Below are positions 14,485 to 25,071 of a stretch of 43,615 bases of DNA, piece by piece; position 1 is the stretch's first letter, and every line of letters begins with the position of its first letter. The stretch is from Candidatus Bipolaricaulia bacterium. Lineage in GTDB: Bacteria; Bipolaricaulota; Bipolaricaulia; JBHIAT01. The notes under the pieces were generated by a model. That model was given only the letters and a program-made list of their open reading frames with translations, was not told the DNA's origin and did no database searches. Both the position numbers and the translations under genes were made by a program. The stretch is from contig JBHIAT010000009.1 of NCBI GenBank assembly GCA_046758705.1, forward strand, positions 1-43,615, written 5' to 3'.

Positions 14485-15524
14485 GTTGGCGATGGAGAGG
14501 CACGACGGTAGAGCCCCCGACCGATGGCAGCGCTGATCTTCTCGACCTCCTCCGTCATCTCAGCGAACTGCGACGGGTAGAGGGACTGGGCCCCATCGCT
14601 CAGCGCCGTCTCCGGATCGTGGTGGACCTCAACGATCAGACCATCAGCGCCGGCGGCGATGGCCGCCCGGGCCATCGGGACTACCCTGTCCCGGATCCCC
14701 ACACCGTGGCTCGGATCGACGATGATTGGCAGATGGCTGAGCTTCTTCACCGTCGGGACGGTCGCCAGCGGCAGGGTGAATCGGGTGTGGTCTTCGAAGG
14801 TGCGGATACCGCGTTCACAGAGGATGATCCGGTGGTTGCCCTCGGCCATAATGTACTCCGCCGAGGCAAGGAACTCCCGGATGGTGGCCGACATCCCACG
14901 CTTGAGCAACACCGGCTTGTCGATCTCTCCCAATGCTTTGAGCAGGTTGAAGTTCTGCATGTTTCGGGCACCGATCTGAAAGATGTCAGCGTAAGCGCCG
15001 ACGGTCTCGATCTGGTTGACCTCCATCACCTCGGTGACCATGAGCAGTCCGTTGTCATCGGCAGCTCTCCGCATCAACTTCAAGCCTGTCTCTCCCAGCC
15101 CCTGGAAGCTGTAGGGCGATGTCCGGGGCTTAAACGCCCCGCCGCGCAAGATCACCGCCCCCGACTCGGCGACCGTAGCAGCGACACGGCTGATCTGTGC
15201 TTCGCTCTCGACCGAGCAGGGTCCGGCGATCACCACCACCTCTACCCCGCCGATCCTGACATCTTTGACCTCGATCACCGTCCCTGGCGGGTTGAAGGCG
15301 CGGCTGGCCAGTTTATAGGGTTCGGTCACCCGGATGACCTCGCGGACGCCATCGTTCAGCACCTCGATATCCCTTGGGTCGACGCCGCGCGTGTCGCCGA
15401 TGACCCCCAAGATCGTCCGATCGACCCCCTCGGAGGGGTGGACCTTGAACCCCCACTCGACCAACTTGGCCTCTACCTCGCGGATCTGTTCCTCGGTGGC
15501 GTCAGGCTCCATCACAACGATCAT
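14481..15524 (-). CDS. aroF: DAHP synthase type I-beta with N-terminal ACT-like domain
   Basis: MIVVM start overlapping the CM stop; IAGPCSVES, RGGAFKPRTSPYSFQG, QIGARNMQNF, DPSHG, ALSDGAQSL. Confidence 0.97.
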   Translation of the reverse strand: MIVVMEPDATEEQIREVEAKLVEWGFKVHPSEGVDRTILGVIGDTRGVDPRDIEVLNDGVREVIRVTEPYKLASRAFNPPGTVIEVKDVRIGGVEVVVIAGPCSVESEAQISRVAATVAESGAVILRGGAFKPRTSPYSFQGLGETGLKLMRRAADDNGLLMVTEVMEVNQIETVGAYADIFQIGARNMQNFNLLKALGEIDKPVLLKRGMSATIREFLASAEYIMAEGNHRIILCERGIRTFEDHTRFTLPLATVPTVKKLSHLPIIVDPSHGVGIRDRVVPMARAAIAAGADGLIVEVHHDPETALSDGAQSLYPSQFAEMTEEVEKISAAIGRGLYRRASPSPT

Positions 15525-15790
15525 CACAATCCCTCCCCGGACTCGATCCGACGAGACTCCTCGATCACCACCTTGAAGATTCGGACCACCACCTCGTCGT
15601 TTAACGGGCCACGGTTCTCCGCAACGACCCGGCTCAGGATCTCCGCCTCCCGCTCCGGTGCGTGGACCTCCATCCCTCGTTCCCCTTTCAGCCGACCGAT
15701 GTTCCGGGCGCACTCGGCCCGGCGGTTGAGCAACCGGAGGATCTCCAAATCCAGCTCGTCTATCCGGGCTCGCCAACCGTCGATATCCAT
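15524..15790 (-). CDS. Chorismate mutase (AroQ type)
   Basis: WRARIDELDLEILRLLNRRAECARNIGRLK..PERE. Confidence 0.92.
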   Translation of the reverse strand: MDIDGWRARIDELDLEILRLLNRRAECARNIGRLKGERGMEVHAPEREAEILSRVVAENRGPLNDEVVVRIFKVVIEESRRIESGEGL

Positions 15791-15800
15791 GGGTTCAACT

Positions 15801-15830
15801 ATTTTAAAGATTCTCGAGTACATTTGTCAA
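15801..15830 (-). promoter_or_regulatory. Putative sigma70 promoter of the aro operon (near-leaderless first gene)
   Basis: TTGACA-18 nt-TAAAAT, only 10 nt before the ATG, no SD. Confidence 0.6.
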
Positions 15831-15851
15831 TTCCGATGGCTGGGGACCGGC

Positions 15852-15881
15852 TTGAAAATTCCTCTCCCCAGACGATAGGAT
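15852..15881 (+). promoter_or_regulatory. Putative sigma70 promoter driving the HEARO-like element and NDP-sugar synthase
   Basis: TTGAAA (15852-57)-18 nt-TAGGAT (15876-81). Confidence 0.5.
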
Positions 15882-15905
15882 CAGATAATAAAGTACAGTA
15901 CAGAT

Positions 15906-16291
15906 GTCAACGACCCGCCCCCTGAAGGAGGTGGGCTTGCGATGGTGGTAGCAACGCAAGCGTTGACTATGAGGAGTTCCTATGCGAACTAAACGCGGTA
16001 CGGGCTACAAGGACGGCAGGATGCGGACTGAGCTTACAGTCGTCCGAAGTTTGGATGCCCTAGTCCTGCCCACTCCGGCAGAACCACTGAATGTCACGGC
16101 TGCCGATGTTAGCAGACTAAGCCTGTATGGCCACCTCGAAGGGCACGCTACAGGTTTGGCGGGAGCCTGGCCGAATACCGGCACCCAATCCCGCCACGCA
16201 ATTATATCAGGAGGTAGGTACAAGCCCTAACGGGCTTGCGGCCAATTCCCCTCGCCCCCTGACCGGGGCGAGTCCCCTTGGCCGAACTCCT
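15906..16291 (+). mobile_element. Non-autonomous IS200/IS605-family element carrying a HEARO/omega-RNA-like ncRNA, with no IscB/TnpB/TnpA ORF
   Basis: 5' end GTCAACGACCCGCCCCCTGAAGGAGGTGGGCTTG..CAAGCGTTGAC; internal GGATGCCCTAGTCC..CACTCCG and TCGAAGGG; 3' hairpin AATTCCCCTCGCCCCCTGACCGGGGCGAGTCCCC. Confidence 0.75.
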
Positions 16292-17563
16292 ATGGACGCC
16301 ATCAAAGACCTCACCGTGATCCTGCCGGCTGGTGGACAGGGGACCCGGCTGTTCCCGTTGACGATCGACCGGTCCAAATCACTGATCCGGATCGGGAACA
16401 AGCCGATCATCTACCTGATCGCTGAGGAACTGGCCCGCCAGGGCTGCCGTGAGTTCATCCTGGCACTCCAGGGGACGATGAACCGCAGCCAGTTGAAGAT
16501 GGCGTTCGAGCACGGAGAGGGATTCTCACGGATGTTGAACCTCGAGCCGGAGGCGGAGTTCATGATGTCACCACCGTACGAGAACGTCGGAAACGCCGAC
16601 GCGATCCGCATTGTCATGAGGTACTACAACATCACCCGAGAGACCCTGGTCGTCATGGGGGACAGCGTCGTCAACCTCGACCTGGACTCGCTGCTCGAGA
16701 CCCATCATCGCCAGGATGCCCTGCTGACGATCGCGCTGTGGGAGGTCGAGGACACCACCGGATTTGGGGTCGCCCAACTGGCGGAGGACGGGCGCATCGA
16801 GACGTTCGTCGAGAAACCTCCCCCGGAGAAGGCACCGTCCAACCTGGCGAACTCCGGGATCTACGTCCTCTCCCCAGAGTTTTGCAACTACTTCGATGAT
16901 CCTTGGATCCAAGCCCAGATCGAGAGCGGCTTCTTCGATATGGGCTACCACATGATCCCGTTCCTGGTCGAGGAGACGGATCGCGTCTACGGATGGAACC
17001 TCTCTGCCCACAAGAGCCCTTATTGGAATGACGTCGGGTCGCCGGAACGATATCGTGAGACGACCCAAGATATCCTGATGGGACGGATCCAGAACGTCGA
17101 GTTCGGGCCCGAGATCGCACCCGGAATCCACATGGACGAGACAACCCAGCGACGCAACGCCAAGGGCCTCCAAGCCGGGAACATTATCTTTCGGGGCCGG
17201 GCTCTGATCGGTAAACACTCCCTTATCGGCCCGGATGCGGTGATCGAGAACTCCGTGATCGGGGATACCTGCGTCATCGAAGCCGGCTCTGAGATCGTCA
17301 ACTCGACGATCATGGGCCAGACCTACATCGGCCGAGGGGTGAGGGCCCACGGGACGATCATCGGCGCGGTCTGCTCGATCGGTGAGGGCTCTCACCTCCG
17401 CAATGGCAGTGTGATCGGCCATGGATCGATGATCGCTCCCGGTTCGGTGATCGGCGAGCATGAGATGGTCGCCCCCCGGGAGGCAGTCCATACCATCTTG
17501 GAGACGGGTCAGTACAACGTCGTCGGCAGCGATCAGACGAACATCTACTTCTATCGCAAGTAG
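16292..17563 (+). CDS. NDP-sugar synthase (mannose-1-phosphate guanylyltransferase/GlgC-like) with left-handed beta-helix
   Basis: VILPAGGQGTRLFPLT..RSK, GFGVA..FVEKP, ANSGIYVL, YWNDVG, C-terminal hexapeptide repeats. Confidence 0.9.
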   Translation: MDAIKDLTVILPAGGQGTRLFPLTIDRSKSLIRIGNKPIIYLIAEELARQGCREFILALQGTMNRSQLKMAFEHGEGFSRMLNLEPEAEFMMSPPYENVGNADAIRIVMRYYNITRETLVVMGDSVVNLDLDSLLETHHRQDALLTIALWEVEDTTGFGVAQLAEDGRIETFVEKPPPEKAPSNLANSGIYVLSPEFCNYFDDPWIQAQIESGFFDMGYHMIPFLVEETDRVYGWNLSAHKSPYWNDVGSPERYRETTQDILMGRIQNVEFGPEIAPGIHMDETTQRRNAKGLQAGNIIFRGRALIGKHSLIGPDAVIENSVIGDTCVIEAGSEIVNSTIMGQTYIGRGVRAHGTIIGAVCSIGEGSHLRNGSVIGHGSMIAPGSVIGEHEMVAPREAVHTILETGQYNVVGSDQTNIYFYRK

Positions 17564-22554: not shown

Positions 22555-25071
22555 TTAGCGTTTCATCCTTTCGTTATCCGGATCGAACAGGGGCGTGCTT
22601 CCGACGATCTCGACGGTGGCCGGATACCGCTCTGCAAAGTACTCTACAAACAGCTTTGTTCCGACCTGTGCGTATTCAGGGGGGAGGTAACCGAGCAGGA
22701 TGTGCTTGCCCACCGAAGGTCCGGCACCTGCACTCGTCACATACGATCGCCTGCCGTTGCGATCCACGATCGACTCGCCGTCCGGGTTCAAGATCGGCTC
22801 ATGACCAAGCATATAGCGAGGTTCGCCGGAGGCAGATCGGTGATTGTCCACCGTGAGCGTGCACAGCAGGGCGGCCGGTTGTTCGTCTCGCGCCCGTAAA
22901 TACGCGTCCCTGCCGATAAAATCCTGGCGTTTGACCTTGGGACGGGCAATGCCGGCCTCAACGGGGTTGTACTCCGTCTCCAGTTCGTGCCCGTAGAGGC
23001 GATATCCTTTCTCAAGGCGTGCCGTGGTGCCGTACACGCCGATGCCGGCGGGCACCACACCGAACGGTTGACCGGCTTCCCATAGGATATCCCACAGGCG
23101 CTGTCCCTGCTCCATGGGCGCATAGAGTTCCCAGCCGAGCTCGCCCACATAAGAGATGCGCAGCGCCCACACCCTTATCTCTCCAATGGTGATGTCCTTG
23201 GCGATTGCGAAAGGGAAGGCCTCATTGGAAACGTCGTCGTCCGTGACCGATCCCACGAGATCACGCGCAGACGGCCCCCAAACCCCGACCGTACACAAGG
23301 CTGAGGTCACATCGTGGAGCTGCACCGAACCGTCGTCGGGAAGGTGGTCTTGAAACCATTTCTTATCTACATTTCCCAAGCCGCCCCCAGTGATCACACG
23401 GAAATCGTTCTCGCCACGCCGCATGATGGTCAAATCGGCCTCCATGCCGCCATGCTCATTCAGAAAGGGCGTATAAACCGCCTTCCCGACGGGGACGTCC
23501 ATGTTTGCCACCGCCATGTGCTGCAGGTAGTCCAACGCCCCGGGGCCGGACACATCGAACTTTGCAAACGCACTGATATCGATCATGGCCACCCGATCGC
23601 GCATGGCCAAGTGCTCGGCATTGATGATGGGCGACCACCATCGCGCGTCCCACTCGGCGGGGCGGTCGAGAACCCGGTCACCGTATTCTTCCAGCAACTT
23701 CTGATTCGATTCATACCAATGCGGCCGTTCCCAGCCTGCGGTTTCAAAGAAGACCGCGCCGAGTTCCTGCTCACGTGCGTAGAACGGGCTGAGCCGCACA
23801 TCGCGGGCAGACTCCCATTGTTCGGCAGGATGGACAGCGTCGTATGTTTTGTTGTATCCTTCGGTGGCGCGCGCGTTGATATACGTCTCGGTCCGGGCGT
23901 ACTCGTAGAAGCGCGCGATGTCCACCTCATGGGGGTCCAGTTCTGGAGCGCCGTCCGTCATCCATTCAGTGATCAGCCGTCCGAACCCGGCGGCCTCTTT
24001 GATCCAGATGGCGGCTGCCGACCACAAACCGCGCACCTCAGGCGTCTCCCCAAGCACCGGCGCGCCGTCAGGAGCCAGCGAGATCAGCCCGTTGACAGCA
24101 TGCTGGATGACCACATTCTCATCGTCCAGGAGGTCGGGCAGAAGCTGCAATGCATGTTCCATCTGCTCTTCAAAATCTTCTTGCGTAAACGGAAGCTCGG
24201 TGGGAGAGAGCTTTGCTTCCTCTATCGAGGGGATATCGTCGGGGGCGTGTAGGATCGGCCGATGCGCATATGAGCCAATTTCCATAGCACTCCCGTTCTG
24301 ACGCTCGTACATCAAGACACTCATGTCTCGTATAATGGGGTACTCAATTTCCGACTTTGTACCGGCAAACTGCTCGATGGGTCCAACGCTGATCATCTGG
24401 TGCACGACGGGTACCAGCGGTATAAACGCGCCCGCCATGCGCGCGATACGGGGGCTCCATACGCCGCATGCGATCACCACGGTCTCGGTGCGTATCTCTC
24501 CTCGATCCGTGTTTACCCCGTGTACGCGGCCGTTCTCCACATCGATTCCTGTGACCTCAGTATTGGCATGGACGCTGAGGGCATCCAACTCTTGGGCCGC
24601 TTCCCGCATCAGGGTCCCGGCCTGCAGCGGATCGACCACACTGACGTCGGGGCTCCACATGGCACCCAGAATCCGCTCGATGTTGACGAACGGTAATAGC
24701 TTTCTGACCTCCCGGGGCGTAATCAGCTCCGCCTCTTCTCCCCAGGATTTGGCTGACGCGATCCGGCGTTTGAGTTCCTGCATGCGCGTTTCGGTGCGCG
24801 CCAGCTCCACTCCTCCGCTCTCTCTATAAACACCTAACGCTTTATACTGCTCCATGCTGTCCCGTGTGAGCTTGGTCATCAACTTGGAGTGATCGATGGG
24901 GAAGATAAAGTTCGAGGCATGTCCCGTGGAACCGCCCGGGTTGGGAAGCGGTCCTTTATCTAACAGCACAATCTCTTTCCAGCCCTTCTTGGCAAGATGG
25001 TAGACCATACAATTCCCCATGATGCCCGCACCGATCACCACGACGTTTGCCTGCTTAGGCAATGTGCTCAT
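22555..25071 (-). CDS. Dimethylglycine oxidase/dehydrogenase-like flavoprotein (FAD domain plus GcvT domain)
   Basis: IGAGIMG, GGSTGHAS (covalent-FAD His position), GWERP, RISYVGELGWELY, RLEKGYR; GGAGG RBS. Confidence 0.9.
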   Translation of the reverse strand: MSTLPKQANVVVIGAGIMGNCMVYHLAKKGWKEIVLLDKGPLPNPGGSTGHASNFIFPIDHSKLMTKLTRDSMEQYKALGVYRESGGVELARTETRMQELKRRIASAKSWGEEAELITPREVRKLLPFVNIERILGAMWSPDVSVVDPLQAGTLMREAAQELDALSVHANTEVTGIDVENGRVHGVNTDRGEIRTETVVIACGVWSPRIARMAGAFIPLVPVVHQMISVGPIEQFAGTKSEIEYPIIRDMSVLMYERQNGSAMEIGSYAHRPILHAPDDIPSIEEAKLSPTELPFTQEDFEEQMEHALQLLPDLLDDENVVIQHAVNGLISLAPDGAPVLGETPEVRGLWSAAAIWIKEAAGFGRLITEWMTDGAPELDPHEVDIARFYEYARTETYINARATEGYNKTYDAVHPAEQWESARDVRLSPFYAREQELGAVFFETAGWERPHWYESNQKLLEEYGDRVLDRPAEWDARWWSPIINAEHLAMRDRVAMIDISAFAKFDVSGPGALDYLQHMAVANMDVPVGKAVYTPFLNEHGGMEADLTIMRRGENDFRVITGGGLGNVDKKWFQDHLPDDGSVQLHDVTSALCTVGVWGPSARDLVGSVTDDDVSNEAFPFAIAKDITIGEIRVWALRISYVGELGWELYAPMEQGQRLWDILWEAGQPFGVVPAGIGVYGTTARLEKGYRLYGHELETEYNPVEAGIARPKVKRQDFIGRDAYLRARDEQPAALLCTLTVDNHRSASGEPRYMLGHEPILNPDGESIVDRNGRRSYVTSAGAGPSVGKHILLGYLPPEYAQVGTKLFVEYFAERYPATVEIVGSTPLFDPDNERMKR

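Follow-up and report, generated by a model that had tools for sequence, protein, structure and literature searches.

The element and its genomic context

The window analysed here, a stretch of 43,615 nucleotides, is contig C9 of a 3.70-Mb, 319-contig assembly of a Candidatus Bipolaricaulia bacterium. Within it, an element of about 390 bp (15906-16295) lies between a gene for a chorismate mutase type II (88 aa; 15524..15790, minus strand; Pfam CM_2, 8.2e-26), which is transcribed away from it, and a plus-strand gene for a 423-aa sugar-phosphate nucleotidyltransferase with a hexapeptide C-terminal domain (16292..17563; Pfam NTP_transferase, 1.1e-37, residues 9-261 matching profile positions 3-242). 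Two promoter-like sites, defined by consensus matching only, were found against 0.3 expected in shuffled sequences: one on the minus strand at 15830-15801 (11/12 consensus matches), and the other, TTGAAA-18-TAGGAT, in the host intergenic region on the plus strand at 15852..15881 (9/12 matches). The latter is probably the downstream host gene's own promoter and, since the upstream gene points away, it is the one promoter-like match on which the predicted transcription across the element rests. No terminator-like site was found in 15700-16450.

The anatomy of the element shows it to be a non-autonomous member of the IS200/IS605 family that has lost its nuclease gene and retained an omega-RNA scaffold together with both transposon ends, which bears out the core of the original prediction, namely a non-autonomous OMEGA-derived element. 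The first ~288 nt constitute an IsrB-type omega-RNA scaffold (HEARO; 15906..16195, plus strand) and the last ~85 nt the other transposon end, with no nuclease gene between them. A check of the sequence found all the previously named motifs in place: the 5' start GTCAAC (15906-11); the plus-strand hairpin CCCGCCCCC-TGAA-GGAGGTGGG (15914-35), which forms the first stem-loop of the RNA and whose opposite strand corresponds to the subterminal hairpin of the right end in the sense of the transposase TnpA; CTTG..CAAG-C-GTTGAC, closing at 15967; the stem GGCGGGA (16158-64)/TCCCGCC (16189-95); the hairpin CAAGCCC-TAAC-GGGCTTG (16221-38); and the TnpA hairpin CTCGCCCC-CTGACC-GGGGCGAG (16251-72). The scaffold is followed on the plus strand by an approximate deletion junction (16196..16209) and by the left end in TnpA's sense (16210..16291), which combines a relic of the last isrB codons, the hairpins 16221-38 and 16251-72, an outer stem (GGCCAA, 16240-45/TTGGCC, 16278-83) and the linker GAACTCCT. 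A conserved terminal ATGG (16292..16295, plus strand) closes the element, its ATG being the start codon of the next gene. Thus, the left boundary earlier set at 15906 stands, and the right one moves from 16291 to 16295, where the unit common to the window and a second copy on contig C151 ends; the terminal ATGG represents either the target site or half of it.

A long-range complement between AGGAGTTC (15972-79) and GAACTCCT (16284-91) had also been proposed. The pairing exists, and we reject it as a functional feature on account of its lack of conservation: the place of 16284-91 is taken by GAACTTCT in C151 and C18 and by GAATTCT in C73, and 15972-79 is already occupied by omega-RNA helices conserved in 5/5 aligned sequences. 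As one partner sits in conserved helices and the other varies, the complement is probably incidental. The only frames lying wholly inside the structured RNA are of 82 and 72 aa, and the frame open from ATG 16127 simply continues into the host gene; an ORF with the RRXRR domain, present at the homologous loci C18, C73 and C162, is absent from the window element.

The omega-RNA scaffold

The Rfam HEARO model (RF02033) matches 15906-16151 on the plus strand over its full length (1-211 of 211) with 64.8 bits and an E-value of 9.8e-13. The gathering cut-off of this model is 83 bits, under which the window element falls; at gathering thresholds Rfam gives 0 matches in the whole window, and HEARO surfaces with E-value reporting only. 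This cut-off appears to be too strict for the present IsrB-type subfamily, because siblings of the element that are linked to an ORF score even lower, at 54-59 bits (C73 58.9, C162 56.7, C18 54.3). At E<=0.01, HEARO was found in 0 of 14 control genomes and at 8 places in the genome under study (C14, C1, C9, C151, C41, C73, C162, C18), with 4 further places at E 0.07-0.6. Five of the eight are followed within ~100 nt by an RRXRR ORF (C1, C14, C73, C18, C162), and C9, C151 and C41 are not; the covariance-model search called for by the original prediction thus returned both the window RNA and several RNAs directly upstream of nuclease-type genes. Three other, weak Rfam matches in the window (E 0.07-8) were set aside as noise.

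The plus strand folds to -169.4 kcal/mol with z = -4.99 (none of 100 shuffles as good), and the minus strand gives z = -3.18 (1/100 as good). A structural alignment of five sequences (the window copy, C18, C73, C162 and the metagenomic L033) yields a consensus of 87 pairs, 16 of which have at least one sequence changed on both sides with the pair kept. The window copy forms every consensus helix, with a 30-nt expansion in one hairpin and a shorter expansion elsewhere. Compensatory changes also mark the conserved stem-loop at 16158-16195, whose stem 16158-64/16189-95 reads GGCGGGA/TCCCGCC here and CACGGGA/TCCCGTG in relatives. This stem lies outside the Rfam model, which according to a passage of Meers 2023 (PMC10055086) likewise leaves out downstream elements of the RNA. 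The window copy agrees with its four relatives at 168 of the 198 columns invariant among them. Measured against the C18/C73/C162 trio, it agrees at 194/265 columns, which is close to the 198/265 of the L033 lineage, and hence there is no sign of extra decay in the window RNA. L033 has itself lost its ORF, its RNA sharing 98% identity with that of the ORF-linked L031. The compensatory changes may all predate the loss of the ORF.

Copies in the genome and the missing isrB gene

A near-identical copy at C151:1977-2366 matches 15906-16295 at 389/390 bases in pairwise alignment, with unrelated flanks, so that C9 and C151 have this unit in common and nothing beyond it. Contig C301 ends in 52 bases identical to the 5' end of the element, joined to a third, different left flank, and C266 starts with an 89-base 3' end that is 91% identical. 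Near-identical copies are therefore present at at least two, and probably three, different sites, and the expected siblings have materialised. Two to three copies also fits the assembly of sequencing run X1, in whose Logan contigs the element forms a separate 383-nt contig with a depth of 25.9 against 9.2 and 12.8 for its flanks (2-3x, contig depth being a rough guide only).

Searching the genome by blastn with 15801-16400 revealed two blocks of similarity to ORF-bearing loci, which supply the predicted copies still holding a nuclease gene. The scaffold block (15906-16193) matches C18:22978-23262 (67%), C73:14543-14833 (66%) and C162:7280-7570 (66%), and the end block (16210-16298) matches C18:24245-24332 (77%) and C73:15816-15905 (75%). 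The stretch of C18 between the two blocks (23263-24244) corresponds to an IsrB ORF at C18:23262-24296. This shows that essentially the whole isrB ORF, ~980 bp relative to C18, is missing from the window element; the last ~20 codons survive as a relic owing to their overlap with the transposon end. The closest ORF-linked scaffolds are only 66-67% identical, and no full-length parent near this RNA was found. In the ORF-linked copies, the IsrB frame is also open for ~70 codons upstream of its likely GTG start, through most of the omega-RNA (C18:23043-23261, C73:14608-14832, C162:7345-7563; window counterpart 15982-16230, 82 codons); this may be due to chance in a GC-rich structured RNA or may reflect an N-terminal extension.

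As for an empty site, neither the element nor its insertion site was matched in 40 other genomes related only at class level, where the sole foreign match covers query bases 2-144 inside the upstream gene. Contigs from 4 DNA sequencing runs contained neither a joint across the element nor a record spanning the whole stretch. In run X4, from a diverged strain, a contig over 15482-15898 departs from the window 8 nt before the element and then runs for 38 nt, the first of which resemble a further HEARO 5' end (GTCAgcuaCC...); in that strain the site is not empty and may be occupied by a different omega element.

A pattern scan with a 24-nt conserved block gave 0 records in genome contigs and 3 in metagenome contigs, none being a sibling of the window orphan. 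One of these, L031, is full-length and aligns to C18 over 1177 nt with ~73% identity. The others, L033 and L032, carry L031's RNA and have lost the ORF between about codon 9 and a point close to its end, the junction being unlike that of the window element. This looks like an independent ORF deletion in another lineage that spared the whole scaffold too. The left flank of at least 780 nt is 98% identical between L031 (1485-3595, reverse strand) and L033 (65-1229), the two differing right after the terminal ATGG; this switch of flanks between L031 and L033/L032 could result from recombination between copies or from strain rearrangement.

Other omega loci are found in the same genome. A third orphan, C41:13690-14293, belongs to another HEARO subfamily (64.4 bits), retains a short remnant of an IscB/IsrB C-terminus (…DGYEYETKGG…) and ends in an ATGG that opens a 258-aa frame, which from its N-terminus we take to be a short-chain dehydrogenase. 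The IscB element at C1:49379-50997 (HEARO, 96.1 bits) appears to interrupt a gene whose halves read on in frame on both sides, and whose translated flanks presumably belong to an enolase-superfamily-like protein. Two contigs (C7:45032 and C29:27785) end in the same 55-nt HEARO-like 5' end (GTCAACGACCTGTCCCGTAAACAGGACAGG...), which suggests one more repeated omega subfamily, at which the assembly broke.

Transposon ends, target motif and predicted guide

The ten bases CGCCCCCTGA open both end hairpins in the same orientation (15916-25 and 16253-62). The subterminal hairpins (15914-35, 16251-72) thus lie on one strand, there are no terminal inverted repeats, and the flanks of C9, C151 and C301 are without a target-site duplication. 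All copies start with GTCAA after unrelated bases, and the flanks of these three differ right up to the G of GTCAAC. The 3' end belongs to a larger family, recovered at 13 other places by blastn and at 17 by nhmmer (E<=0.01), with end motifs of ATGG at 13 ends, ATGA at 2 and GTGA at 1. In TnpA's sense, the left end runs from 16291 to 16210 and the right end from 15967 to 15906. This assignment follows from the ends beside the tnpA genes on C27 and C43 together with passages of Meers 2023 and Kapitonov 2016, with which it agrees: in the former (PMC10055086) the right end of the transposon is given as the origin of the IscB omega scaffold, with the guide situated 5' of the element and transcription having to begin outside it, and in the latter (PMC4810608) ISC elements have a terminus in common with IS605 elements whose tnpB is antisense.

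The ATGG is either the target of TnpA (CCAT on TnpA's strand), and hence the expected TAM, or the AT of the element followed by the GG of a GT|GG target. Passages of Kapitonov 2016 (PMC4810608) give GT|GG for Ktedonobacter elements with a GTCA...ATGG context and N|ATGA for those of Microcystis. Scarless excision would leave the guide-matching flank followed by ATGG, which would correspond to the 3' TAM geometry of IscB/IsrB; the TAM of DtIsrB is given as NTGA in the portion of Hirano 2022 (PMC9581776) consulted.

With the guide positioned as in the passages of Meers 2023 (PMC10055086), the predicted guide segment of the window copy is the host 5' flank at 15889..15905 on the plus strand. Transcription starting ~7 nt downstream of the 15852-81 site, near 15888, would place a guide of 16-19 nt before the scaffold. 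The predicted 16-mer guide of the window copy finds its own site only, with nothing else in the genome at <=2 mismatches. Among the corresponding 16-mers of six copies examined for retargeting, each matches its own site alone, the next nearest sites having 2 or 3 mismatches with no pattern, a result consistent with homing and without indication of any further target.

Nucleases and transposases encoded elsewhere

The RRXRR domain (PF14239) occurs at 7 places in the genome, with at least five intact-looking ORFs. The protein on C1 is an IscB (434 aa) in which Pfam detects both RRXRR and HNH, and four others have RRXRR without HNH: C14 (363 aa), C73 (346 aa), C18:23262-24296 (344 aa) and C18:5113-6132 (339 aa). 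Compared with the IsrB of PDB 8DMB, the C18 protein gives an E-value of 1.4e-76, and from their sequences the nuclease of the nearest relatives of the window element (344-346 aa, no HNH) is identified as IsrB rather than IscB. The expectation of an IscB-like protein encoded elsewhere is therefore borne out as far as RRXRR ORFs elsewhere in the genome are concerned, and amended as to the type of nuclease. A locus search of genome contigs with the C18 IsrB gave 1 weak, unrelated-looking locus (31% over 49 residues).

With six Y1_Tnp, 7 RRXRR and 23 TnpB-type matches, members of this superfamily abound in the genome. The Y1 TnpA at C27:14325-14684 is a 132-aa open frame (E 4.8e-40) with a TnpB match downstream of tnpA, and that at C43:510-896 has one internal TGA. 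Both tnpA genes lie on the opposite strand, 70-150 nt from matching ends, which are 85-90% identical to 16221-16285. With Y1 TnpA genes beside matching ends elsewhere in the genome, mobilisation of the window element in trans is well supported.

Placement of the family at host start codons

The position of the window element exactly between a host 5' leader and the first codon of a gene in the same orientation recurs across the family. In 11 of the 15 copies examined (9 of 13 ATGG ends and both ATGA ends) the terminal ATG opens a long frame: 16292 in the window, and C18:24326, C171:148, C107:5372 (minus strand), C43:1041, C152:771, C27:14818, C193:5313 (minus strand), C200:52, C18:6185 and C11:90. 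C266 and C10, whose ends are altered, were left out of this count. Pfam assigns host protein families to ten of these frames and to the window gene. In most frames the match to the domain begins within the first 15 residues and at profile position 1-4, so that these are true N-termini: a dihydrolipoyl dehydrogenase type (473 aa; residue 11 at profile position 2), the window nucleotidyltransferase (423 aa; residue 9 at 3), a V-ATPase subunit F (113 aa; residue 4 at 1), an RNase H (216 aa; residue 2 at 2), a formiminotransferase (306 aa; residue 8 at 1) and a small nucleotidyltransferase (111 aa; residue 14 at 4). The URO-D, M29 peptidase, Crp, CcmH-like and ABC-2 frames are less informative on the N-terminus. 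The exceptions have short frames after the ATG (C151, 28 codons; C68, 7; C73, 10; C85, 5). The copy with the GTGA end (C100) lies 9 nt before the start of what, from its N-terminus, we take to be a threonine synthase.

Against the background, in which 28% of 29,315 ATGG sites have at least 100 open codons, the naive probability of 9 or more out of 13 is 0.002. Under a uniform-insertion null in which all 3,219 crude genes are counted as ATGG starts it is 1e-6, and under a survivorship null, based on 512-1,500 genes starting with ATGG and on 3,247 ATGG sites that lie outside crude genes, it ranges from 7e-6 to 6e-3; all these values derive from a crude gene model and from copies in one genome. 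The pattern holds alike for IsrB-type, TnpA/TnpB-type and orphan copies, and the gene-interrupting IscB element on C1 breaks it. Full-text literature searches returned no statement of start-codon insertion by IS200/IS605 elements, and one may still be published. The term 'start codon' has 0 occurrences in the accessible text of Kapitonov 2016 (PMC4810608), and the accessible part of a 2026 review makes no such statement either.

A second regularity is the sequence GGAGGT ~80 nt upstream of the terminal ATG (16210-16216 in the window), present at 11 of the 12 ends that reach this stretch (window, C151, C266, C107, C43, C27, C18, C171, C152, C68 and C73); C10 has GAAGGT, and contig ends truncate C200 and C193. 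The GGAGGT is conserved both where it is coding, as part of the IsrB C-terminus, and where it is non-coding, in TnpA-type elements. It might be a portable ribosome-binding site that the intervening hairpins bring near the ATG, in which case the left end may carry the translation needs of the displaced host gene.

These observations raise the possibility, put forward here tentatively and with more doubt than confidence, that the IsrB/TnpA family including the orphan is a start-codon homing family. Its 4-nt target/TAM would coincide with the first codon of the host gene, the target being N|ATGG, or GT|GG with insertion turning GTG into ATG. Copies would persist almost only there and in the sense orientation, with the host promoter and leader supplying transcription and guide. 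The nuclease would then recognise the 5' leader plus start codon of a vacated gene, and the orphan omega-RNA would be a leader-embedded guide RNA inside a host mRNA. If general, placement at start codons would link the survival of transposons to the transcription and translation signals of their hosts, and would provide a simple rule by which guides and TAMs could be located with nothing but the genome sequence.

Proposed mechanism and alternative explanations

Taken together, the above results are best explained by the window element being a protein-less derivative of an IsrB-type IS200/IS605 (ISC) transposon, in which the isrB ORF was deleted internally and which would rely in trans on TnpA for its movement and on IsrB for the use of its RNA; we consider this joint reading highly probable. 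In this scenario, a Y1 TnpA acting in trans would move the element by peel-and-paste to a position next to ATGG. Transcription from the host promoter at ~15852-81 would then produce an RNA composed of a host 5' leader of ~16-19 nt, serving as guide, and the scaffold. As no terminator-like site follows, this RNA may continue into the nucleotidyltransferase gene. An IsrB paralog would bind the orphan RNA and, after excision, nick the vacated site, recognised as the guide match followed by NTGG, whereupon recombination with a sister copy would restore the element, as in the homing model presented in passages of Meers 2023 (PMC10055086). The orphan would in this way be a parasite of the transposase as well as of the nuclease. 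Movement in trans is the well-supported part of this scheme, and the use of the orphan RNA by IsrB is inferred. Weak points of the mechanism are that IsrB is a nickase and that even the closest ORF-linked scaffolds reach only 66-67% identity.

The alternative that survives best is that the element is an inert hitch-hiker, a parasite of the transposase only: TnpA would require just the two ends, the rest of the omega-RNA was carried through a recent deletion and no nuclease uses it. We regard this as possible and on balance rather unlikely. The near identity of the copies (389/390) means that the orphan state may be young, the nearest IsrB-linked scaffolds are distant in sequence (66-67%), and selection since the ORF loss is not demonstrable because the orphan copies are too alike. 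Set against this are the two apparently independent ORF deletions, in the window lineage and in L033/L032, both of which spare the complete scaffold, the lack of excess change at constrained columns, and the action of such RNAs in trans in other systems, as given in passages of PMC10055086 and PMC9581776; none of these points is decisive.

Much less probable is a co-opted leader, that is, a structured RNA that controls the nucleotidyltransferase gene from its 5' leader. The location of the element between the promoter-like site and ATG 16292, the lack of a terminator-like site in 15700-16450 and the frame open from ATG 16127 into the gene would all suit such a role, but the same element also stands before a 28-codon frame at C151 and at a third site, and its sequence is therefore not tailored to the nucleotidyltransferase gene. 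Finally, a divergent new RNA class, which the original prediction had entertained, or a fortuitously structured, GC-rich intergenic stretch with no relation to OMEGA can be dismissed despite the score under the Rfam gathering cut-off, given the full-length model match (E 1e-12), the homology to RNAs directly upstream of IsrB ORFs and the common transposon ends, which identify an ordinary IsrB-type omega-RNA.

Comparison with known systems

Protein-less IS200/IS605 derivatives with omega-RNAs, as well as stand-alone omega-RNAs, have already been described, and the window element is a further member of this group, of the IsrB type. Altae-Tran and colleagues reportedly described, in 2021, stand-alone omega-RNAs acting with IscB in trans. 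The window element resembles these in having no adjacent nuclease gene and in residing in a genome with several IscB/IsrB loci, and differs from them in that both transposon ends are kept, the copies are mobile and the nearest nuclease is the nickase IsrB, not IscB. That stand-alone omega-RNAs can function with IscB is also stated in a passage of Hirano 2022 (PMC9581776).

In this element a guide RNA has outlasted the nuclease gene that once accompanied it and has stayed mobile, a clean example from nature that supports the published view of OMEGA systems as sets of modules (transposase, nuclease and guide RNA) which can be separated and parasitised individually. The scaffold, of the IsrB type, is also compact, and its TAM (NTGG) may be new. 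The ~288-nt scaffold fits the ~300-nt IsrB omega-RNA and the 262-nt scaffold mentioned in the consulted part of Hirano 2022 (PMC9581776), and shares with the Desulfovirgula thermocuniculi IsrB omega-RNA described there (PDB 8DMB) a multi-helix architecture of ~260-300 nt with the guide in front. The TAM would be 3' and NTGR-like in both, provided that ATGG is the TAM, with NTGA published for the D. thermocuniculi system in contrast to ATGG here.

The ISC transposons of Ktedonobacter racemifer and others, as presented in passages of Kapitonov 2016 (PMC4810608), likewise start with 5' GTCA..., end in ...ATGG or ATGA, generate no target-site duplication, have subterminal hairpins and a 3' terminus in common with IS605 (antisense tnpB), and depend on TnpA in trans; unlike the window element, they bear an ORF. 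The closest parallel in terms of organization is with the PATE-like elements of Geobacillus stearothermophilus, which, in the sections of Meers 2023 (PMC10055086) that deal with them, often encode omega-RNAs needing nucleases, TnpB being named, from other IS elements in trans. Like the window element, these have no protein gene, possess left and right ends in common with ORF-bearing members, carry a guide-RNA scaffold and presumably depend on a TnpA and a nuclease encoded elsewhere. The two differ in that TnpB is the nuclease named there as acting in trans, whereas the window element, known from its sequence, has an IsrB/HEARO-type RNA at the right end with a 5' guide.
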